From Halothece sp. Uz-M2-17 (GTDB taxonomy: Bacteria > Cyanobacteriota > Cyanobacteriia > Cyanobacteriales > Rubidibacteraceae), in contig JAVLCL010000031.1 of the NCBI GenBank assembly GCA_031580825.1, forward strand, positions 1 through 13,949: a DNA stretch of 13,949 nucleotides, read 5' to 3'. Position numbers and translations under genes: made by a program. Shown here piece by piece: positions 3,023 to 13,932 of this stretch (its first letter is position 1; the number at the start of each line of letters is the position of its first letter). Below the pieces are notes generated by a model. It was given only the letters and a program-made list of their open reading frames with translations, had not been told where the DNA came from and did not search any database.

Positions 3023-3264
3023 TCTGTTTCCTTAGCCTCATTGCTGGCAATTTTATCACAGTCAAAAATTACCAAAAAAATTACGGGTTTAATGCTCCGT
3101 CATTACTATTGAGTGCCTATGATCTGTTACTTGGGGCAAATTCCCGAATGACTAACGACCATCATAGAAACCCTTGCTCTCGTTAAACTGAAGGATACAG
3201 GGAGTGCAATGCTTAAACTGCAATTAGTTTGATTCCTATATCTCCCCCATCTTGGGTCTCTCTC

Positions 3265-5094
3265 ATGTTTAGTTTTCTGGTCTTACAAGCTCTAGCGATG
3301 GGGTTTGTTAGTGCCTGTTCATTGCCTCTAGGAGCATTAACGGCTCGTTTCTGGCAACCGAGACAGCGTGCATTAGCTTTTCTGATGGCGTTTGGGGCGG
3401 GCGCGTTACTTTCAGCGTTAGCGATTGATTTGGTGAATCCTGCCGTAGAAGCTGGATATTTTTATCCTCTCGCCTTCGGATGTATTTTGGGTGGACTATT
3501 ATTTCTATCTCTAAACCAATTGCTCAATAATTATGGGGGATTTCTTAGAAAAGATTCGATTACGGCTCACTACTTCCAAGCTCGTCAACGACGCAGATTT
3601 AAGCGTATGCTGTCAAATATGGGTCGAATTGATGTATTTCAGCAGCTAGCCCCTAGAGAAATTCAACAGCTTGCCAATAGTGTTTTTAGTCGTAAATATC
3701 CAGCAGGAACCCGAGTTTATCACTCTCGTGAACCGTCAGCAGGTCTTTATATGATTGAAGAAGGGGAAGTGGAACTCTTAGATCCACAGCAAAATGCCCG
3801 TGTTGTTAAGCACTTGACCAAAAATGATGCCTTTGGGCGGATGGCATTTTTTACGGGTGCACCTCACGCCACGATCGCGCTGACAAAAACAGATACTCGA
3901 CTTTGGATCTTACCGAAAACGGCGTTTGATCAGTTGCTCAAAACGTCCCCGACATTAGTGGAAGCGGTCAAACAATTACTTCAAAGTCATGAGATTGCGT
4001 TTTATTTACAACAGCGACAAGGACTCTCACCCAAAAATGTCAAAGCATGGGTGAAGCGGGCGGTTCAAGAAATTGAAACGTGCAGTGCGCCACAGGAAGT
4101 TATTTCCGTTGAGCGCAAAGATCAAGAACTAGAACATCTCTTAACTCAAGTCCGACGAGTTCCGATTTTCCAAGATTTATCACCGGAAGATACACGAGCG
4201 ATTGCAGGGCGGGTTTTTTGCAAACGACATCCCAAGGGTCACACCTTTTTTCATCAAGGTGAACTCGCTGATCGGATGTATATTATCGAAAGTGGAGAAG
4301 TGGCATTAATTGACCGTACCAATCCGCAGCGACAGCCTTTAAACTTGCAAAAACAAGATGCTTTTGGCAGTCTATCTTTTTTAACGGGAACTTTCCACAC
4401 GGCGACCGCGATCGCGAATACAGAGACCATCGTTTGGGTCTTACGAGAACAAGATTTTAATGAACTGTTACAAACCTCACCGCTTCTGGAAACAGCAGTT
4501 AAAACCTTTTTACAAGAAGGAGAAGTGTTTCACTATCTCCAAGAGCGACAAAATTTTGATTTGGATCAAGCTGCGCGTTGGACTCAAAAAGTCATTAAAA
4601 TTATGGATTCGGGTCAATTCATTCCTTCTGCTGCGGAGATGAGAGACGCAATTGAAGAACACCGCAGCGCACCGGTTGCGATCTGGTTGGGGTTGATGCT
4701 GGATGACATTCCCGAATCATTAGTTATTGGTTCCAGCTTAGTCCACTCTCAGGTTAGTTTCTCCTTGATGGCTGGGTTATTTCTCTCGAACTATCCAGAA
4801 GCCCTTTCTAGTTCAGTCGGAATGATGCGACAAGGCTTCTCTTTTCGGCGCGTGGTCAGTATGTGGAGTTCGCTCACTGTAGTGACAGCAGTGGGTGCTG
4901 CACTCGGAAGTCTCTTTTTTGTGAGTGTATCGCCGTTTCTCTTTTTTTTCGTAGAAGGATTAGCAGCCGGTTGCGTACTCACGATGGTTGTGGAAACAAT
5001 GTTGCCCGAAGCCTATTTGAAAGGAGGATCAATTATTGGATTTTCGACTTTAATGGGATTTCTGGCTGCTTTATTTTTTAAAACATTCGAGTGA
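3265..5094 (+). CDS. ZIP-family (ZupT-like) metal permease with two tandem cyclic-nucleotide-binding (CAP/CNB) domains inserted in the cytoplasmic loop
   Basis: - **ZIP N-terminal half:** ALAFLMAFGAGALLSALAIDLV resembles ZupT [22 protein letters not shown].
- **ZIP C-terminal half:** LMLDDIPESLVIGSS...LFLSNYPEALSS...FVEGLAAGCVLTMVVETMLPEA...GFSTLMGFLAALFF resembles ZupT LHNFPEGIA...LHNIPEGLAV...AGIMVALSVDELMPLA.
- **Two CNB beta-roll signatures in between:** FGRMAFFTGAPHATIALTKTDTRLWILPKTAFDQLL and FGSLSFLTGTFHTATAIANTETIVWVLREQDFNELL. Each is followed by a FxYLQxRQ helix.
- **Start uncertain:** the ORF track begins at TTG 3229; the first ATG is 3265. Confidence 0.8.
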   Translation: MFSFLVLQALAMGFVSACSLPLGALTARFWQPRQRALAFLMAFGAGALLSALAIDLVNPAVEAGYFYPLAFGCILGGLLFLSLNQLLNNYGGFLRKDSITAHYFQARQRRRFKRMLSNMGRIDVFQQLAPREIQQLANSVFSRKYPAGTRVYHSREPSAGLYMIEEGEVELLDPQQNARVVKHLTKNDAFGRMAFFTGAPHATIALTKTDTRLWILPKTAFDQLLKTSPTLVEAVKQLLQSHEIAFYLQQRQGLSPKNVKAWVKRAVQEIETCSAPQEVISVERKDQELEHLLTQVRRVPIFQDLSPEDTRAIAGRVFCKRHPKGHTFFHQGELADRMYIIESGEVALIDRTNPQRQPLNLQKQDAFGSLSFLTGTFHTATAIANTETIVWVLREQDFNELLQTSPLLETAVKTFLQEGEVFHYLQERQNFDLDQAARWTQKVIKIMDSGQFIPSAAEMRDAIEEHRSAPVAIWLGLMLDDIPESLVIGSSLVHSQVSFSLMAGLFLSNYPEALSSSVGMMRQGFSFRRVVSMWSSLTVVTAVGAALGSLFFVSVSPFLFFFVEGLAAGCVLTMVVETMLPEAYLKGGSIIGFSTLMGFLAALFFKTFE

Positions 5095-5349: not shown

Positions 5350-6114
5350 ATGGCTTATCAAAATATATTACTAGACTTAGATATTAACTTTATTCAAAAT
5401 CTTAAGATTGCATGGAATATTTTTAAGGCAAATTTTAAACTCTTTTTTGTTTTATCAATAATTAGACCACTCATAGCATTGATTTCAGTATTACTCGACT
5501 CATTGCCTCAATTAATGTTTAGTGCTTAGATTGATAATATTTTCTTTATTTTATACTTTTTGACGGCTTTAGTAGAACTAACACTAATTTTGATTCCATA
5601 TATTGTTACAGAACAGACAGTCCTGAATAATAAGAGTCAACTTAAGCTAGCATTCAAAAAAGCATTGAGTAAAACATTAATTATCATCATTATTACTTTG
5701 ATCTTAACAATTATAACTGGAATCGGTTTTCTACTATTGATTATTCCTGGAATTTATTTATCAACTCTCTTTAGTTTTTTGTGGCAGTCAATTTGTTTGC
5801 GAAACTGTAAACTAAATGCTTTTACATATAGTAAGAATTTAGTAAAAGGAAGGTGGTGGAAAGTTTTTTATCACTTTTTCTTAATTAGTTTTTTTGGGAT
5901 AATTTTATCATTTTTTATTTTTATGATTTCGGGAATTATTAGTTTTGCCTTACCACAAATTCTAACTTGGAATTATTGGGTTTCCTTTATTTTTATTATC
6001 TTGCCTTTAACGTACTTTTTGTTAGCTTTAACTGTTAATTATTTTATCACAGTGATTACTATTTATTTTCTCAACTTAGATTATAGAAAAAATGGTTTAC
6101 CACTGCGAGTATAA
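5350..6114 (+). pseudogene. DUF975-like polytopic membrane protein gene interrupted by an in-frame TAG (5527-5529); the ORF track shows only the distal part, from TTG 5560 to 6114
   Basis: ATG 5350 opens a 59-codon ORF (MAYQNILLDLDINFIQNLKIAWNIFKANFKLFFVLSII...) in the same frame as the 5560..6114 ORF. A single TAG separates them. The N-terminal W-x-x-FK-x-NF motif and the downstream IIPGIYLSTLFSF...SKNLVKGRWWKVF motifs match the DUF975/YciC-like integral membrane family. That family normally carries them in one polypeptide. Confidence 0.5.
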
Positions 6115-6275: not shown

Positions 6276-6303
6276 TTGACTAAAAATTAACTTTTCTTAA
6301 AAT
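6276..6303 (+). promoter_or_regulatory. Candidate sigma70-type promoter (TTGACT -16 nt- TAAAAT) about 80 nt upstream of the 6384 gene
   Basis: Motif match only, inside an AT-rich intergenic region. No other support. Confidence 0.25.
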
Positions 6304-6383: not shown

Positions 6384-7652
6384 ATGTCTCAACAACTGAT
6401 TCCTCCCCGAAATATTCAGATTGATGAAACGCATAATAATGTCAGAATTGTCCGAAAGTGGTTAGACAAAACGTTTTTCTCATATTTGTTGCCATTAGCA
6501 ATTGGTTGGAATGGATTTTTCGCTTGTGGTATCTGGATACTTTTCATTAGTGGAAATATAACTTTCAGTTCTGGAATGTTAACTTCAAATATGCCCGTTT
6601 TTGCTAATATAATAATAATTTTATTTATATTAATGGGAATTTATTTAATCTATCTTGTAATTGTAAAATTAATCAACAGAACTGAAATTATAGCTAATGA
6701 TGAAGAAATTGCGATTAGCCACAGACCACTTTTTTATCTTGGCTTAAAGAGGAAACGATTTAGAGTTTCTAATTTAAAGGACTTCCACGTTAAACAAGTT
6801 TATAACCCTGGTACAATTCCAAGTCAATATTATTGTTATGAGGTTTATGCTAATACTCATACAGGAAGTGATCAGAAATTGCTTACTGTTGCAAGTAGTA
6901 AAGAGGCTTATTTTATTGAGACAACCCTAGTAGAGTATTATAAAATTGAACTTGAACCAGAAAATGAAACTGAACATGAGCCGATAAATGCGCGTAGTTT
7001 ACAATCAAAAGAAAAACAACCTGTTGTGAGTAGTGTTAATAAGCCTAATGAAATAGAAAGTCCTAAAAGCATTAAAATTTATCAGGATGATACCCAAATT
7101 AAAATCAGCAAAAAATGGACTGGTGGGGCTTTTATGGCAGGATTTGCAATTTTGTGGAACGGTATTTTTATTGTTTTGGCTCTATTATTTGCTAACAGTG
7201 ACAATACAACTGGAAATCCCTCGCTCCTATTTCCATATTTTTTGGTATTTTTCTCTACGGGATTATTGCTTATTTATGTTGCAGTTATGCTGTGGCGAAA
7301 TTATACCTATATTGTTGCCAATGAGGAATTGATTACGGTTAGCTATGGATCAGTTCCCTGTCCTTGGTTTAGAAATCAACAGATTAAAGCAACTCAATTA
7401 AAAAGACTGTATTCTAAAGTATATTCTAGGGGTAAAAATGGTTATACTTATATCATTCATGCCAAGATGACTTGGAAAAGAAAGAAAAATAGAGAAATAG
7501 AAGAAAGGCTAGTTAGTGTTGATAGTCGTCAAGAAGCCTTGTTTATTGAGAGGACATTAGAGGATTATTACAACATAGAAGATCAGCCTCAGGAAGGAGA
7601 AATTGGTGGACCTGAAAGATCGGTTCTTCGTCGGTTCCTCGGAAATCAATAA
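6384..7652 (+). CDS. Internally duplicated membrane protein of unknown function: 2 x [short beta-strand + TM hairpin + ~110-aa soluble domain]
   Basis: 422 aa.
- **Repeat 1:** IQIDETHNNVRIVRKW..LAIGWNGFF..(2 TM)..EIIANDEEIAISH...YCYEVYAN...KEAYFIETTLVEYYKIE.
- **Repeat 2:** IKIYQDDTQIKISKKW..AILWNGIF..(2 TM)..YIVANEELITVSY...YTYIIHAK...QEALFIERTLEDYYNIE.
- It lies in the low-GC island. I recognise no family confidently; it may be a bacterial PH-like (membrane-flanked) domain arrangement. Confidence 0.75.
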   Translation: MSQQLIPPRNIQIDETHNNVRIVRKWLDKTFFSYLLPLAIGWNGFFACGIWILFISGNITFSSGMLTSNMPVFANIIIILFILMGIYLIYLVIVKLINRTEIIANDEEIAISHRPLFYLGLKRKRFRVSNLKDFHVKQVYNPGTIPSQYYCYEVYANTHTGSDQKLLTVASSKEAYFIETTLVEYYKIELEPENETEHEPINARSLQSKEKQPVVSSVNKPNEIESPKSIKIYQDDTQIKISKKWTGGAFMAGFAILWNGIFIVLALLFANSDNTTGNPSLLFPYFLVFFSTGLLLIYVAVMLWRNYTYIVANEELITVSYGSVPCPWFRNQQIKATQLKRLYSKVYSRGKNGYTYIIHAKMTWKRKKNREIEERLVSVDSRQEALFIERTLEDYYNIEDQPQEGEIGGPERSVLRRFLGNQ

Positions 7653-7810: not shown

Positions 7811-10800
7811 TTAAACTGACAGAATGGACTTTTGGCAACGCGCTATTAATTCTTCAAATATAGGATCGCCAAAACTCATCAAACGTAGTGAACTGTTCTC
7901 AGCAAAAACTTCAGGATAAAATGTAACTTGATAAGCGTTACTTGAATCATGCAGTTGCCAAGTCTGTTCCGTCAACTTAGTCCACTCCACTCCCTGTAAA
8001 GCCAAAATCCTAGAATTGGTCATTAATTGTTCAATGGCTTTTGGAGAAAGGGGAGAAGGAGGAAGGGGTTCATTCACTTCCGCTAAATCGGCTTCCACAT
8101 CTCGGTTGACCAAATCATCCACATCCATCTCCATCTGGACGTTGTTGAAATTCTGCTCAAATTCCGCCATCAACACATCTTCCTCTTGCGGATCTGCACT
8201 CATGACGGCTTTTTCAATGAAGGTGGGAACTTCTGCGAGAATCGGTTGAACATGACCGACGACATTCTCAAATAAATCAATGCGATCGCGCAGCCGTCGA
8301 TAAACTTTCGCTTCTACTGTTCCATCATAGTAGAAGTTATGAATCCTGACCGTAGAATACCGTTGTCCAATGCGATCCAATCGTCCGATCCGTTGTTCTA
8401 CTCGCATCGGGTTCCAAGGGAGGTCATAATTGATTAAAACGCCACAGGTTTGTAAGTTTAGTCCTTCACTGGCTGATTCGGTACAAATTAAGAGTTTGAT
8501 AGCGCGTAGGTCGGAGACCGAGCCGTAGGCATCGCGAAAACTGCGCTTAATCTGTTCCTTGGGAACAATCCGCCATCTGTCCCCTTCATAAAGTTCTCCA
8601 CCTCTTCCCGAATAACAGGCGAGTTGCGTTCCATACAGTTGTTGTAACGATTCTCGCAAATAGTCCATTGTGTCAGTGTACTGGGTGAAGATGAGGATAC
8701 TTTCGCGATTTAGAAATTCTTGACGAAGGAGATCAATGAGAAACGATAACTTACTATCTTCTCCTGTATTTTCAAACTGACGCAGTAAATCTTCTAAATA
8801 CTCGATTTCTTTGGGGTCAACGGGTTCAGCTAAATAAGACTCTAACCCTGTAATCACCGCATCATCCACTTCATCCAGTTCAATTAAATCATCTTCGGTG
8901 ACACTAATGCCATCTAAACGACGTTGAAGCGATTGACGAACGGCGTAAAAAGAACTGGTGAGGCGTTTGCGATACAGGGTCATCAAAAAGCCTAATGCTT
9001 TGCGTTCCTGTTTTTGCGCGAGGCGATAAAAGTCCCGCACATAGTCACTGACAGCACGATAAAGAGGGATTTCACGGTTGGTTTCGAGGTTAATGGCGTT
9101 ATCTTGAACTTCGCGGGTGGGAACATCCCGTTCTAACATTCCCCGTTTGTAATATTCTCTCAAGGTATCGCGGGTGTGGCGGAACATATGGTCTTTGAGG
9201 GGAGTGTTAACGGTGAGATATTGGCGGGAGGTGTTAATAAACGGTTTATTCGCCAGAGAAGATTTGTAGTTGGCGATCTTTTTCCCTTTTTCCCAAGTAT
9301 CCTGGAGTTGGTAAGCTAGAACGCGATCGCGCTGTTTAAGATAGTCTTGAAAACGGGGACAAGCCCTTCCCCCATTACGGAAATAATCGGTGGACATCCG
9401 TTGCCAAAATTCTAGAGTATTTTGATTCGGTTGATTGCTAAGAGAGGCAAAATAATCACAGAAGTTATCGCCGTAATACCAGTGTCCTTTTAAGCCGAAT
9501 AAATGGAGGAGATCAAAGACTTCAATGGGATCGATTTGCATGGGAGTCGCTGATAAAAGAATCAGTGATTTTGCCTTTCCGCTTTCCCGTAGTTGTTGCA
9601 TTAAGGTTAACAACCGATTGGGAGTATCTTTTCGCGCTTGCGGGCTTTTTCGTCTGGCGTGGTGGGCTTCATCTAATACGACTAAATCCCAAGCCTTTGC
9701 TGATAACAATTCTTCCATCCGTTCTTGACGGCGCATCAAATGACTGGAGGCTAAAACTAAATCTTTACTATTCCAAGGATTCGTAAAGTTTTCCTGATTT
9801 TCTGTTTTCCCATAACAGTCTTGAAACGCCCCTTTAGTATAACTCCAAAAATGTAAGTTAAACTTTTCTCGCAGTTCTTCTTGCCATTGGGTTTGTACAC
9901 TTGCAGGAGAAAGCACTAACACTCGTTGTACTTTTTGGGTAATCAAAAGATATCGTAAAATTAAACCCGTTTCAATGGTTTTTCCTAAGCCAACTTCATC
10001 AGCAATCAGGAAGCTATGGGGAAATTGTTCCGCAACACGGCGCAGAATTTTAACTTGATGTAACCAAGGAGTAATGGGAATAGATTGCAAGCAAAAATCT
10101 AAGCATCCGTCATGCTTTGGAAGATTAAATAATAGTTCCCATTGTTGTTTTTCTTCATTAGTTATTTGTGGTTGGTTATTCGTTATTTGTTCTTCGTCGG
10201 CGGTTTGAGTGTTATAGTCATTCCAATTAATTTTCGTAGTGCGACCGTCTCGGTCGCTGTTAGAAAAAGTGTCTTGGTTGCTGTTAGAAACGGTATCGGC
10301 GCGATCGTTGTTAGGGAGCAAGATGCTCCCACTACTATTCACCTGATAATTCTCCTTGGGAATTACTATAGGGCGAGTATCGAATTCTACTTTTTGATTC
10401 CAGGTTGGTTTCGTATTTGGAGTGTAGCGTAAGAGTTTTTGACGCACCGCTTCGGGAACTTCAAAGGTTTTCACATTCGGTGCAAAATTATTCCAAAGTT
10501 GTTCAAAGCGAAACACTTCTTCTGAAACTCGTTCTAAATCTCTTCCCCCTTCCCATGAGCAGTAAACATGAAACGATTCAACATTTTGTTCCCAGCCACT
10601 TAGGGATTCATTATTTGACCCAAAACAGACTAATTGGTTATTCTCAGCATCGGTAAAGATTCCCACTTTTTCATGGAAAATATGTTGCGGATTAATTTGA
10701 GTTTCCGATGATTCAGGAAGTCCATTTTTTTTGAAAGGAATAGCGATTTTTATATCTAAATATTCGTTTTGAATTAGCCAACTGAGGATTTCAAAATGTT

Positions 10801-11122
10801 TCAGTTGGGCGAAGGTTTCAGGAGAGGTTAACTCCGTATCGAGGCGAGTGGTTAAAGCCTCCCGCAGCGCATAACCTTTTTCAATCGCTTCTAAATCTTG
10901 GGGACTAAACTGACAGCCCATAATCAGACGCATTTTACCATTATTGTCTAACATCGCGCCTAATCCTTGAGCTACTTTGCTAAGAATGCGACTACTGAAA
11001 AAGCCTGATTTGCGATCATAGTTGACAGACCGTTCTAAGGCGGGAATGTAAAATTCAAGGATGGGGTTATGTTCGTTACTGGAGTAACCAATGCGCCAAG
11101 TGTAATCAGGTAATGTTTGCAT
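7811..11122 (-). CDS. PLD-family nuclease (single HKD motif) fused to an SNF2-family helicase (helicase-nuclease)
   Basis: 1103 aa.
- **N-terminal domain (about aa 1-230):** HEKVGIFTDAENNQLVCFGSNNES is an H-x-K...D...GS-x-N PLD/Nuc motif.
- **Linker:** a low-complexity N/S/Q/T stretch.
- **SNF2 motifs:** Walker A is FLIADEVGLGKTIETG. The DEAH box is LVVLDEAHHARR. Motif III is LLSATPMQ. Motif VI is QRIGRLDRIGQ, with LICTESASEGLNLQ ahead of it. Confidence 0.9.
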   Translation of the reverse strand: MQTLPDYTWRIGYSSNEHNPILEFYIPALERSVNYDRKSGFFSSRILSKVAQGLGAMLDNNGKMRLIMGCQFSPQDLEAIEKGYALREALTTRLDTELTSPETFAQLKHFEILSWLIQNEYLDIKIAIPFKKNGLPESSETQINPQHIFHEKVGIFTDAENNQLVCFGSNNESLSGWEQNVESFHVYCSWEGGRDLERVSEEVFRFEQLWNNFAPNVKTFEVPEAVRQKLLRYTPNTKPTWNQKVEFDTRPIVIPKENYQVNSSGSILLPNNDRADTVSNSNQDTFSNSDRDGRTTKINWNDYNTQTADEEQITNNQPQITNEEKQQWELLFNLPKHDGCLDFCLQSIPITPWLHQVKILRRVAEQFPHSFLIADEVGLGKTIETGLILRYLLITQKVQRVLVLSPASVQTQWQEELREKFNLHFWSYTKGAFQDCYGKTENQENFTNPWNSKDLVLASSHLMRRQERMEELLSAKAWDLVVLDEAHHARRKSPQARKDTPNRLLTLMQQLRESGKAKSLILLSATPMQIDPIEVFDLLHLFGLKGHWYYGDNFCDYFASLSNQPNQNTLEFWQRMSTDYFRNGGRACPRFQDYLKQRDRVLAYQLQDTWEKGKKIANYKSSLANKPFINTSRQYLTVNTPLKDHMFRHTRDTLREYYKRGMLERDVPTREVQDNAINLETNREIPLYRAVSDYVRDFYRLAQKQERKALGFLMTLYRKRLTSSFYAVRQSLQRRLDGISVTEDDLIELDEVDDAVITGLESYLAEPVDPKEIEYLEDLLRQFENTGEDSKLSFLIDLLRQEFLNRESILIFTQYTDTMDYLRESLQQLYGTQLACYSGRGGELYEGDRWRIVPKEQIKRSFRDAYGSVSDLRAIKLLICTESASEGLNLQTCGVLINYDLPWNPMRVEQRIGRLDRIGQRYSTVRIHNFYYDGTVEAKVYRRLRDRIDLFENVVGHVQPILAEVPTFIEKAVMSADPQEEDVLMAEFEQNFNNVQMEMDVDDLVNRDVEADLAEVNEPLPPSPLSPKAIEQLMTNSRILALQGVEWTKLTEQTWQLHDSSNAYQVTFYPEVFAENSSLRLMSFGDPIFEELIARCQKSILSV

Positions 11123-11124
11123 GG

Positions 11125-11142
11125 TTTGTTATTCGTTATTTG
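11125..11142. repeat. 18-bp element TTTGTTATTCGTTATTTG in the DUF5615-to-SNF2 intergenic gap; left arm of a perfect inverted repeat with 12427-12444
   Basis: It is exactly identical to the reverse complement of 12427-12444 (CAAATAACGAATAACAAA). It sits 3-20 nt upstream of the SNF2 ATG on the coding strand. Confidence 0.6.
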
Positions 11143-11143
11143 G

Positions 11144-11476
11144 CTAAGTTAGCACTAAAATACTTTCCGTTGCGCTATTACAAAACTGGCTAATGGTGTC
11201 AAATTGATCTCTGAGAACTTGAACAATTTTAGAGGTTGGCCTGTTTCCAATACGAAGATAAATAAATTTAGGAGGATGACCATAAAGTAAGCTACGTTGA
11301 TAAAAGTCAGAGTCCTTAGAAACAATGACAAAATCATTGGCTTTTGCATACTCCCAAATTACTGCATCATCGGTGTTTGTTAAACCAACAGTCTTAACAT
11401 GGGTAGAATCAGGATATAGATCAACAATCCTATTAATGATACGGTCGGAAAGATTTTCGTCTAATAGCAGTTTCAC
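11144..11476 (-). CDS. DUF5615 family PIN-like (Mut7-C-like) protein; toxin-like partner of DUF433
   Basis: 110 aa: MKLLLDENLS...GLTNTDDAVIWEYAKANDFVIVSKDSDF matches the DUF5615 consensus (LLDENLP...GL..ASD.EI..A.....ILITKDKDF). Its start overlaps the DUF433 stop (ATGA at 11473-11476). Confidence 0.75.
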   Translation of the reverse strand: MKLLLDENLSDRIINRIVDLYPDSTHVKTVGLTNTDDAVIWEYAKANDFVIVSKDSDFYQRSLLYGHPPKFIYLRIGNRPTSKIVQVLRDQFDTISQFCNSATESILVLT

Positions 11477-11697
11477 AATGAAGTTACAAATAGCTTTTTC
11501 TCACGGTCAGCAGCAAAAGCAAGACAGGCTTTAATATCTTCAGGAGTTAATTCAGAAAAATCTTCTAAAATTTCCTCTTCAGTCATTCCACCTGCTAAGT
11601 ATTCTAGAATATCAGAGACAGTAATTCGCATTCCTCGAATACAGGGTTTTCCGCTACGTTTTCCAGGTTCAATTGTAATGATTTGATGGTAATCCAT
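11473..11697 (-). CDS. DUF433 family protein (antitoxin-like partner of DUF5615)
   Basis: 74 aa: IITIEPGKRSGKPCIRGMRITVSDILEYLAGGMTEEEILEDFSELTPEDIKACLAFAA matches the DUF433 signature (GKP.I.GTRI.V..IL..LA.G.S.EEIL.DYP.LT.EDI.A.L.YA). Confidence 0.8.
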   Translation of the reverse strand: MDYHQIITIEPGKRSGKPCIRGMRITVSDILEYLAGGMTEEEILEDFSELTPEDIKACLAFAADREKKLFVTSL

Positions 11698-11735
11698 TTT
11701 TGTTCTCAGTTATTTGAAGTTAATCAAGAAAATAA

Positions 11736-12020
11736 CTACATATTATTAATTTTGACAGGACGGGCTTGATTATCTAACTCGGAACGATAGTTGTTTTCTA
11801 AATTTATCCAAATATCAGCCGATGTTTCTAAACTCTTACCTAGATCATTTGCAATCTCAGTTGTAATTTGTTGATCTCCTTTTAGAATTGCTTCAATTAT
11901 TTCTACAGAATATCCCATTCTTTCTGCTAGATCATTTTTTGTCCAGTCCCGTGCTTCTAACTCCCGATTCAAGATTTTTCCTGGTGCAACTCTTCTGGCG
12001 GGGGTTAATTTTTTACTCAT
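11736..12020 (-). CDS. higA: HigA-family HTH (XRE-type) antitoxin/transcriptional regulator
   Basis: 94 aa: PGKILNRELEARDWTKNDLAERMGYSVEIIEAILKGDQQITTEIANDLGKSLETSADIWINLENNY matches the HigA-family pattern (PGEIL.EE.LEP.G.S...LA..LGVS...IS.I..GKR.IT...A..L...FG.S.E.WLNLQ..YDL). Its ATG shares one nucleotide with the upstream TAA (TAATG). Confidence 0.8.
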   Translation of the reverse strand: MSKKLTPARRVAPGKILNRELEARDWTKNDLAERMGYSVEIIEAILKGDQQITTEIANDLGKSLETSADIWINLENNYRSELDNQARPVKINNM

Positions 12021-12409
12021 TATTCTAGTCCTAATTCGTTATTAGTTATTGGTTCGTGTTTCTTTATTGAGTTGAGGTAGGCGTTAAGTTTCGGGGAAAG
12101 TTCTTCGATTAAGGGCTTAATTTGATTGATTTCTTCCTCGGTTAAAAGTTTATGATTATAAGCGAGTCTTAGCCAATGGCGAGTTTCATAGAGAGAACCT
12201 CTTGCTATTTTAATAAAACGTTGATTATCTTTATAATTATAACGTCCATTTCCTTCAGCAATATTTGCGCCAATACTATCAGCAGATCGAATGATTTGTT
12301 TCCCGACAGTATTTTTAGCAAAGTAATCCCATTTTGCAACGATAACCCAAAGCTGATTAGCCAATTCTTCTGCTAGTTGATAAACTCTCAACTCTGAAAA
12401 TTTTGCCAT
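12020..12409 (-). CDS. Four-helix-bundle protein of the '23S rRNA intervening-sequence protein' family (Avd-like)
   Basis: 129 aa: FSELRVYQLAEELANQLWVIV...GKQIIRSADSIGANIAEGNGRYNYKDNQRFIKIARGSLYETRHWLRLAYNHKLLTEEE matches the family hallmarks (F..L.VWQ.A..L...IY......Q.RRAA.SI..NIAEG.GR....E...FL.IA.GS..E.). Confidence 0.8.
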   Translation of the reverse strand: MAKFSELRVYQLAEELANQLWVIVAKWDYFAKNTVGKQIIRSADSIGANIAEGNGRYNYKDNQRFIKIARGSLYETRHWLRLAYNHKLLTEEEINQIKPLIEELSPKLNAYLNSIKKHEPITNNELGLE

Positions 12410-12426
12410 TCCCTTCTCCCAAACAA

Positions 12427-12444
12427 CAAATAACGAATAACAAA
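12427..12444. repeat. 18-bp element CAAATAACGAATAACAAA in the MTase-to-4HB intergenic gap; right arm of the perfect inverted repeat
   Basis: Exact reverse complement of 11125-11142. It lies in the 38-nt gap between the MTase stop (12448) and the 4HB start (12409). Confidence 0.6.
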
Positions 12445-12447
12445 TAA

Positions 12448-13932
12448 CTAAATCCCTAAATTCATCTGTCCATCGTCTAAGTTGATCTCCATTTGTTCGT
12501 AAAGCACCTTAGATTTAATTTCATCCATGGCTAACCATAAGTCTAATAACGCTTTATGTTCAGGGACATTTTGCGGAATTACCTTAAACGCCACTTCCAT
12601 TGTTTTACTAAACATATCATTACTAACTAACCCTGTATCGTGCATAAACCGCCGTACCATTTGGATGTTTTCTTCTTCTTGATAAAGGGCGATAATCGCA
12701 TGAAGTCCATTCACTAAATGTTGGGCGGAAAATTCTTGGGGGTTGATGGAAAAGGCGCGTTTTTTCAGGCGCTGAATAGGGGTTAAGAGTTTACAGCTTC
12801 CACTGGCGGAGTCGAGGAGTTTATGGACTTTTGCTAAGTCGGTGACGTTAAACCCACCAATGGCTAAGGCTAACTGTCGCGCTTCATCAAAGGGGAACTC
12901 TCGCGCTTTGAACGCATCCCACGCCAGAAGATACCATTGGGTTAAGGTGTCAAACCCTGCGGTGTCGCTTTGTACCAGTTTTTGGAAGCGGTAGTTTGCA
13001 ATGGCGGTTCTCGCTTCGGCGAAGGCTTTTTCGGGACGGACTTCTTCTCCTGTACTATCGAGGATAGGGTAGGAACGGGAGAAGACGTTGAGGGCGGGAC
13101 CAAAGGCGCTAAGATAAAGGTCAATTCCTGTGATGTCGTTGGCTTCAAAGTCAGGGGCGCGAGACTCTACAAGGTTGGCAACTTCGGGGCGCAAATCATC
13201 CCACCAGGCTTGTTCGGCGTTGGGGTCGCGTTTACGACAGACTAATAAAACGGTGCTGGAAACGCTATTTTTCTTGGCTTGGTGGAGGTTTTGGGGGCTT
13301 TCGGTACTAACCGCCCAAGATGCGGTAATCTCGAAGCCTGCATCAATGAGAGATTTGGTTAGGACATCCCACGCGCCAGAGTCTTTATGGTTAAACTGAA
13401 CGGTCATCACGCCATGTTCTTTTAAGACGCGATAGTATTCAGCGAACGCCATTTGCATTTTCCCTTCGTAGTCTTGGCTGGCGAGTTCGTCGGGGGAGAC
13501 TCCCATGTTACGGAAACGGGAAGAGTTAGCAACGGCTTCTCTATCTTTATCGGTGAGTTCAGTGAGGAAAAGTTCGGGGTGAATACCTTCTAAAACTCTT
13601 TTTTGCCAGACGTAGAAAAAGTCTGATATTTCTGCATATTGAATAGTTGCGTAATAAGGAGGGTCAGTGACGATGGTATCAACAGAGTTATCAGGAATAT
13701 GGAATAAACTATCAGCAGAAGCAGAGTTGATTTGAATTGATTTAGAGTCGTATTTTTCCAGTTCTTTTAGTTGGATAGAGTTAGATTGTGTTCCTAATAA
13801 TTGACAAAGTTTACTGTATTCTGAAGCTAAAGCATCAGCACACCAATGCCATAATTCTCCATTTCCACTAATTTCTGGATAATTCCAAAATAAATTGGCT
13901 CTTCTAGAGTGAGTATGATAAGTTAATACCAA
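12448..13932 (-). CDS. DNA methyltransferase domain protein (DPPY motif IV; amino-MTase N6-A/N4-C type), apparently N-terminally incomplete or split
   Basis: 494 aa from a TTG start.
- **Motif IV:** SADSLFHIPDNSVDTIVTDPPYYATIQYAEISDFFYVWQ. It is followed by a YY.VLKEHGVMTVQFNHKD...AGFEITASWAV block typical of amino-MTases.
- **No motif I:** I see no FxGxG SAM-binding motif I anywhere in the ORF.
- **N-terminal limit:** an in-frame TAA immediately precedes the TTG, so the N-terminal part must be missing, frameshifted or encoded separately. Confidence 0.7.
   Translation of the reverse strand: MVLTYHTHSRRANLFWNYPEISGNGELWHWCADALASEYSKLCQLLGTQSNSIQLKELEKYDSKSIQINSASADSLFHIPDNSVDTIVTDPPYYATIQYAEISDFFYVWQKRVLEGIHPELFLTELTDKDREAVANSSRFRNMGVSPDELASQDYEGKMQMAFAEYYRVLKEHGVMTVQFNHKDSGAWDVLTKSLIDAGFEITASWAVSTESPQNLHQAKKNSVSSTVLLVCRKRDPNAEQAWWDDLRPEVANLVESRAPDFEANDITGIDLYLSAFGPALNVFSRSYPILDSTGEEVRPEKAFAEARTAIANYRFQKLVQSDTAGFDTLTQWYLLAWDAFKAREFPFDEARQLALAIGGFNVTDLAKVHKLLDSASGSCKLLTPIQRLKKRAFSINPQEFSAQHLVNGLHAIIALYQEEENIQMVRRFMHDTGLVSNDMFSKTMEVAFKVIPQNVPEHKALLDLWLAMDEIKSKVLYEQMEINLDDGQMNLGI

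Follow-up and report, generated by a model that had tools for sequence, protein, structure and literature searches.

A probable EROS-like membrane protein with two split-PH modules in Halothece sp. Uz-M2-17, and the bacterial family of its module

Introduction

EROS (CYBC1) is an endoplasmic reticulum chaperone of NOX2 that binds and stabilises NOX2 and P2X7, and its deficiency leads to chronic granulomatous disease. Ycf4 scaffolds the assembly of photosystem I and is needed for this complex. The split-PH architecture is already known from EROS, in whose structure the PH domain is "separated by H1 and H2" and six strands lie between H2 and the C-terminal helix (PMC11161758). Thomas et al., who described EROS as a chaperone of NOX2, reported that it has sequence similarity to the photosystem I assembly factor Ycf4 (PMC5379978), a report that is relevant here because the host considered below is a cyanobacterium, Halothece sp. 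Uz-M2-17. The literature found on the split-PH/transmembrane-hairpin architecture treats only EROS, in animals, and Ycf4, in plants and algae. In a stretch of 13,949 nucleotides of the Halothece contig JAVLCL010000031.1 (hereafter the window), the gene at positions 6384 to 7652 of the forward strand encodes a protein that very probably consists of two copies of an EROS-like split-PH membrane module, with four transmembrane (TM) helices in all.

Tandem organisation and fold of the protein

The gene is a clean reading frame of 422 codons plus stop, and its product is identical to the NCBI entry 'hypothetical protein RI580_02795' of Halothece sp. Uz-M2-17. A sequence-only reading of the window had taken the protein to be built from two copies of one module and had quoted four pairs of matching segments from its halves, all of which are found, in register in a single alignment (residues 11-26/230-245, 39-46/255-262, 101-113/309-321 and 173-189/383-399). 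The two halves are homologous according to BLASTP (29 % identity over 192 residues, E=1e-20), and the comparison of N-module and C-module profiles made from five close homologues by HHalign is significant as well (probability 99.9 %, E=4e-33, 180 columns). The duplication is old, as had been supposed: the modules are nearer to modules of other proteins than to their own partners, which rank 22nd and 51st, and the sole trace of the repeat at the DNA level is a segment of 68 nucleotides with 72 % identity, at a spacing of 630 nucleotides, over the helix. Hydropathy gives four hydrophobic segments arranged in two hairpins. Each half is a module of ~185 residues comprising a beta-hairpin, two TM helices, six strands and a C-terminal helix; the module layout of the sequence-only reading therefore stands in outline, with the amendments that its single beta-strand before the TM hairpin is a two-stranded hairpin and that the domain after the TM hairpin has ~95-100 and not ~110 residues.

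The fold was predicted with AlphaFold2, which modelled the C-terminal module (residues 220-422) from a 69-sequence alignment with a predicted local distance difference test score (pLDDT) of 89.6 and a predicted template modelling score (pTM) of 0.80. When this model was compared with the Protein Data Bank (PDB) by Foldseek, EROS was the sole match at E<=1e-3 (PDB 8kei chain D, EROS/CYBC1, Pfam PF15169; E=3.7e-6, probability 1.00, TM-scores 0.56/0.67), and the match covers the whole module, including the TM hairpin. The order of elements in the model, namely two strands, H1, H2, six strands and a C-terminal helix, equals the topology of EROS, and for this reason the module is read as a predicted split PH-like domain with an inserted TM hairpin. 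The same order (beta-hairpin, two long helices, six strands, helix) is seen twice in an AlphaFold2 model of the full-length protein built from five sequences, which was used for secondary structure only because its pLDDT is 57.6.

The likeness of the module to EROS extends to its size (~185 residues per module, 187 in EROS) and to the predicted cytoplasmic position of both termini. Nevertheless, the identity between the two is only 7-8 %, and the module family, unlike EROS, is bacterial and has its own motifs (KW before TM1, N-x-T after TM2, PLPWxGN, and ALFIEQ...D-x-P-x-x-GE). The tandem duplication found here and the N-terminal zinc ribbon that other family members often carry are further differences from EROS. 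As judged from the model, the resemblance of the module to EROS is one of fold and topology.

The sequence-only reading had compared the protein with bacterial membrane-flanked PH-like domains of the YdbS/YdbT type, and its PH-like part holds, the soluble part of the module being PH-like in fold. A bPH-type protein such as YdbS or YdbT (Pfam bPH_2) would be expected to act in resistance to antimicrobial peptides, in envelope stress, or in the export of, and immunity to, bacteriocins. In the Pfam description of bPH_2 (PF03703), copies of the domain come with TM hairpins, one to three per protein, and the repeated copies flanked by TM helices in the Halothece protein resemble this description. 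Foldseek relates the model to the bPH_1 structures 3dcx and 3hsa with a probability of 0.66-0.85; moreover, YdbS/YdbT-like PH proteins are reported to be tied to bacteriocin transport and to the sigma-W regulon (PMC8657885, PMC3498285). Nevertheless, 3dcx and 3hsa match only the soluble part of ~90 residues, at an E-value of about 0.2, whereas EROS, unlike the bPH structures, matches the entire module with its TM hairpin. The families bPH_1 to bPH_6 share with the module a PH-like fold associated with TM helices, but in the module the hairpin interrupts the fold after strand 2, so that two strands precede it and six strands and a helix follow. No bPH family of Pfam was matched when the protein, its halves and 69 family members were searched with hmmscan at E<=10, other scans at E<=0.01-0.1 gave none either, and bacteriocin or ABC-transporter genes do not recur in the neighbourhoods of family genes. 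Membership of the bPH or YdbS/YdbT families is accordingly not supported, and a bPH-type protein is considered an unlikely explanation.

In a Kir-like channel or pore, an N-terminal strand in the cytoplasm would be followed by two TM helices and by a beta domain, also cytoplasmic, through which the protein oligomerises around the pore; this order of elements is superficially similar to that of the EROS-like module. Weak matches to the TM domain of Pfam IRK (PF01007) were obtained for 6 of the 69 family members, including P0045 (best E-value 0.0075), and Kir chains of the PDB weakly match the family profile (E-value about 0.1), in a PDB sequence search that returned nothing significant. However, none of these matches reaches significance (IRK at ~15 bits against a cut-off of 22.7) and each covers a single TM helix, and the loop between the TM helices, with a median of 7 residues, is too short to accommodate a pore helix or a selectivity filter. 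The IRK and Kir matches, at profile positions 80-133, are probably due to TM composition, and a channel is regarded as highly improbable.

Relation to Ycf4

Like the EROS-like module, Ycf4 (PF02392) has ~185 residues and two N-terminal TM helices, followed by a stromal or cytoplasmic domain that ends in a helix, and it occurs in cyanobacteria and plastids, the host here being a cyanobacterium. On the other hand, the Ycf4 motifs GSRR.SN and RWGFPGKNR are absent from the module family, and this family, unlike Ycf4, is found mostly in non-phototrophs. A global comparison by hhalign of 153 modules with 44 diverse Ycf4 sequences taken from metagenome contigs gave ~165 collinear columns at a probability of 0.7-2.2 % (E=0.02-0.04), a plant-only Ycf4 profile gave 1.4 %, and the family profile against the single EROS sequence gave 0.5 %, none of these values being significant. 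In the same set-up, which is of low power, the accepted EROS-Ycf4 pair reaches only 2.4 %; because this control is equally weak, the weak scores against EROS and Ycf4 are not evidence of absence. Both queries are authentic members of their families, tobacco Ycf4 matching PF02392 at 4.7e-76 and human EROS, which is identical to 8kei_D, matching PF15169 at 9e-86.

A further-reaching interpretation, which we consider rather unlikely, is that the module represents a third, bacteria-wide branch of an EROS/Ycf4 superfamily. Split-PH chaperones of polytopic, possibly redox-active or cofactor-binding, membrane complexes would then be ancient and widespread, and the Halothece protein would be a fused, pseudo-dimeric paralogue acting beside the canonical Ycf4. 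If this were true, the range of split-PH membrane chaperones would reach beyond plastids, cyanobacteria and animals.

Anatomy and membrane topology of the two modules

The features of the gene are given below, with positions of the window, strand, and residues (res) of the protein; AlphaFold2 is abbreviated AF2 and hidden Markov model HMM.

6384..7652, +, whole gene, probably two tandem split-PH/TM-hairpin modules (open reading frame list, translation)
6384..6971, +, module 1, res 1-196 (hmmsearch envelope with the module HMM; 145.8 bits with a family HMM from which this clade was left out)
6414..6458, +, N-terminal beta-hairpin of module 1, res 11-25, ending in the invariant KW (strands E11-16 and E19-25 of the AF2 full-length model)
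6468..6674, +, TM hairpin of module 1, predicted helices res 29-59 and 70-97, joined on the outer side by a short loop that lacks charges (AF2, hydropathy, lysine and arginine counts)
6678..6950, +, predicted cytoplasmic beta region of module 1 (res 99-169) and C-terminal helix KEAYFIETTLVEYYKIE (res 172-189) (AF2, half-to-half alignment)
6951..7040, +, acidic and polar linker between the modules, ~res 190-219 (pLDDT <50 for res 189-225, predicted disordered)
7041..7601, +, module 2, res 220-406 (hmmsearch envelope; AF2 with the pLDDT and pTM given above)
7071..7115, +, N-terminal beta-hairpin of module 2, res 230-244 (strands E11-15 and E19-25 of model m4ca120efa542, that is, residues 230-234 and 238-244)
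7125..7298, +, TM hairpin of module 2, predicted helices res 248-271 and 279-305 (H29-52 and H60-86 of the model; hydropathy)
7302..7568, +, predicted six-stranded beta region of module 2 (res 307-379, with N-x-T and VPCPW loop motifs) and helix QEALFIERTLEDYY (res 382-395) (AF2)
7581..7649, +, C-terminal tail EDQPQEGEIGGPERSVLRRFLGNQ with the D-x-P-x-x-GE motif conserved family-wide, consensus ...LGIxDxxVxGE (pLDDT 53-66)

In the model, the N-terminal beta-hairpin of module 1 corresponds to strands 1 and 2 of the split PH-like domain, and W26, which follows it, is invariant across the family. The linker between the modules varies in length among homologues, as seen in indel-rich alignment columns, and the C-terminal tail has a short helix of low confidence after the D-x-P-x-x-GE motif. 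When scored with the family HMM built without these proteins, each half reaches ~145 bits, showing that neither half has decayed; the possibility that one of them is a degenerate pseudo-module was ruled out on the same scores.

Lysine and arginine are rich in the N terminus and in both domains that follow the TM hairpins of the Halothece protein, while the loops within the hairpins are short and uncharged, and the values for the family agree with this pattern (outer loop with a median of 7 residues and 0.4 lysine or arginine, N-terminal segment with 5, domain with 14). This distribution fits the positive-inside rule, by which the N terminus, the linker and the two PH-like domains are predicted to face the cytoplasm, leaving only outer loops of ~7 residues on the other side. 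With the TM hairpin inserted after the second strand, the folded domain, a predicted PH-like beta-sandwich with a C-terminal helix, would therefore sit directly on the cytoplasmic face of the membrane.

A bacterial family present in many phyla

A word-index protein search with the whole protein returned only 5 relatives, all of them two-module proteins, and the sole named one among them was Euhalothece natronophila FRE64_03535. The impression of an orphan that this search gave was overturned by an exhaustive profile search, which also found the single-module homologues that the sequence-only reading had proposed to look for. In this search, made by HMMER with a profile of eight half-sequences against representatives of 50 %-identity clusters, 2061 cluster representatives were matched at E<=1e-3, 647 at E<=1e-10 and 15 at E<=1e-30. 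Among the best 150 matches of the module profile, the architectures are a single module of ~185 residues, a CxxC...CxxC zinc ribbon followed by one module (~235 residues, common), two modules (~400 residues), one three-module protein, and a few proteins in which the module is fused to FGE-sulfatase, DUF3592, DUF4178 or additional membrane domains. The rare fusions to FGE-sulfatase (SUMF1-like), DUF3592 and DUF4178 are seen in P0107 (756 residues), P0078 and P0091, and the FGE-fusion cluster has 37 members.

The exact motif HGPLPWxGN occurs in 117 GTDB species of at least 6 phyla when one genome per GTDB species is scanned, with loci in Planctomycetota, Myxococcota, Gemmatimonadota (Longimicrobium), Verrucomicrobiota, Chloroflexota, Spirochaetales, Cohnella, and Bacteroidota; the family hosts also include cyanobacteria. 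The residues conserved family-wide are a Trp closing strand 2 before TM1, a Gly and a Tyr in TM2, N-x-T right after TM2, the loop P-L-P-W-x-G-N, a Tyr of the sheet, A-L-F-I-E-Q in the C-terminal helix, and the D-x-P-x-x-G-E tail, and the conserved module columns comprise N87, T89, P104, P106, G109, Y137, A166 and E170. Searches of IMG/VR and BFVD returned no viral relatives.

When the protein, its two halves and its relatives were scanned, no model of Pfam, NCBIfam, PHROGs or PADLOC covered the module; the libraries returned only zinc ribbons and sub-threshold noise (DUF6585 at 0.045, IRK, DUF3093). The database labels of family proteins are 'hypothetical' or 'zinc ribbon domain-containing', and no precomputed Pfam domain lies over the module. 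The module thus defines a large bacterial family of many phyla that has no model in the four profile libraries searched, an annotation gap that takes in the family itself, its motifs, the forms with a zinc ribbon or tandem modules, and its wide distribution.

Duplication history and pairing of modules

In all two-module proteins, the best matches of each module are equivalent modules elsewhere or single-module proteins, and N-modules group with N-modules and C-modules with C-modules in at least 3 or 4 independent two-module clades, one of which has zinc ribbons on both modules. Moreover, two to four family genes lie side by side at the loci L028, L031, L060 and L074. Because fusions recur and paralogous genes adjoin, these arrangements suggest a working unit of at least two modules, and they hint at the module pair as such a unit.

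The longest of these rows, at L074 4632-7989 (Planctomycetota bacterium ZRK32, CP066225), has four family genes, one of which encodes 414 residues; L028, L031 and L060 have one pair of adjacent paralogues each.

The DNA of the C-module helix of the window is 90.7 % identical (7531-7605) to the N-module helix segment of Euhalothece, and the helix motif recurs in the linkers of P0003 and P0004 as a third, incomplete copy (EKTLEDYYNFEGKYQKGEI). By sequence comparison, the helix-coding segment of the Halothece and Euhalothece genes shows concerted evolution between repeats, at the following positions.

7531-7605 of the window, +, 10539-10613 of L001 and 10634-10670 of L002, helix-coding segment under concerted evolution

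Proposed function

The overall explanation that best accommodates these results, although it is put forward tentatively, is that the tandem split-PH membrane protein is an adaptor or assembly chaperone; a chaperone function taken on its own is more doubtful. This proposal is made by analogy with Ycf4 and with EROS, whose hairpin and PH domain take hold of TM2, TM6 and the dehydrogenase domain in NOX2 (PMC11161758). The Halothece protein would be anchored in the membrane and face the cytoplasm, serving another membrane protein, and the partner might be gripped by the TM hairpins together with the conserved surface of the PH domain. The two modules may then form a covalent pseudo-dimer; in other bacteria, the equivalent unit may be assembled from separate subunits.

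Several points weigh against this explanation and against the kinship with EROS and Ycf4. Neither PF15169 nor PF02392 matches the protein, its halves or the 69 relatives, even at E<=10. The function is argued from an analogy of fold, and PH-like domains have many roles. The full-length model (pLDDT 57.6) is too poor for the packing of the modules, and no conserved neighbour points to a client. Finally, a photosystem-specific role for the whole family is unlikely, as most family members are in non-photosynthetic bacteria.

With more than 2000 sequence clusters of the same architecture left unannotated, the family may offer tractable bacterial models of how a chaperone grips its client membrane proteins. 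If the functional analogy fails, the protein would still belong to a correctly classified new family of PH-like membrane proteins, which is of modest interest.

Genomic context and the question of defence

The gene is convergent with a PLD-SNF2 helicase gene at 7811-11122 (-) and lies 158 nucleotides from a row of defence-like genes. This row (7811-13932, -) encodes a DNA methyltransferase (HmaB-like), a 23S-rRNA-IVP four-helix protein, an HTH protein, a DUF433 and DUF5615/PIN-like pair resembling a toxin-antitoxin module, and the protein with PLD and SNF2 helicase domains, which matches the PbeA/BrxH/DrmD/HmaA models; the methyltransferase open reading frame starts 17 nucleotides from the end of the window.

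The sequence-only reading had conceived of an exclusion or abortive-infection role in a low-GC island next to this operon. In such a case, the tandem protein would be an effector acting with the methyltransferase and PLD-SNF2 operon, for instance through depolarisation of the membrane once a phage infects the cell, and its closeness to the row, its small size with several TM helices and its low GC content are in keeping with this idea. However, the gene is convergent and not co-directional with the SNF2 gene, and its protein matches 0 PADLOC and 0 PHROGs families, in addition to the lack of relatives in the two viral collections named above. The orthologues also have unrelated contexts, since that of Euhalothece lies between a GT4 glycosyltransferase gene and apcA/apcB and that of P0004 between HNH/KGK genes and WD40/CobW genes, and three distant relatives have unrelated neighbours as well. 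When all open reading frames within 4 kb were clustered over 83 loci, no neighbour family was present in more than 5 loci, which also speaks against a conserved co-location with defence genes. Membership of the gene in the adjacent defence operon is not supported, and a defence effector is extremely improbable.

The low GC content is real, but it is a property of the gene itself and not of a shared island. In three related genomes the gene is AT-rich (GC 0.31-0.33, GC3 0.25) against ~0.38-0.44 for most neighbours, and it occupies three non-syntenic sites (6384-7652 of the window, 10001-11227 of L001 and 10001-11254 of L002). The DNA similarity between the window and the orthologue loci begins 4 nucleotides before the ATG and ends inside the gene. 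Taken together, the low GC of the gene itself, the non-syntenic sites and the confinement of the similarity to the gene suggest that it behaves as a relocating accessory gene.

Upstream of the gene, a spacer of 269 nucleotides contains promoter-like sites whose number is not above that in shuffled sequences; the following one was recorded.

6276..6303, +, promoter-like site TTGACT-16-TAAAAT (consensus scan, 10/12 matches; weak evidence)

Before this spacer, an open reading frame for a polytopic membrane protein (5350-6114, +) has one in-frame TAG at 5527-5529 and the lowest GC content of the window (0.26), and it may be a pseudogene or reflect a sequencing error. It has no Pfam match, and its one NCBIfam match, YciC-like and very weak (E=0.014), is confined to the region downstream of the stop (5560-6111). 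Kinship of this protein with the membrane domain that is fused to the module in P0139 was considered and dropped, no similarity between them being found. A scan with Rfam detected no RNA family in the window. Further upstream, the gene at 3229-5094 (+) encodes a protein in which an N-terminal ZIP zinc-transporter segment, limited to residues 9-104, is joined to two cyclic-nucleotide-binding domains, an unusual combination, and the left end of the window carries a gene for an SPFH/Band-7 membrane-scaffold protein (307-1563, +), which is unrelated to the tandem protein.

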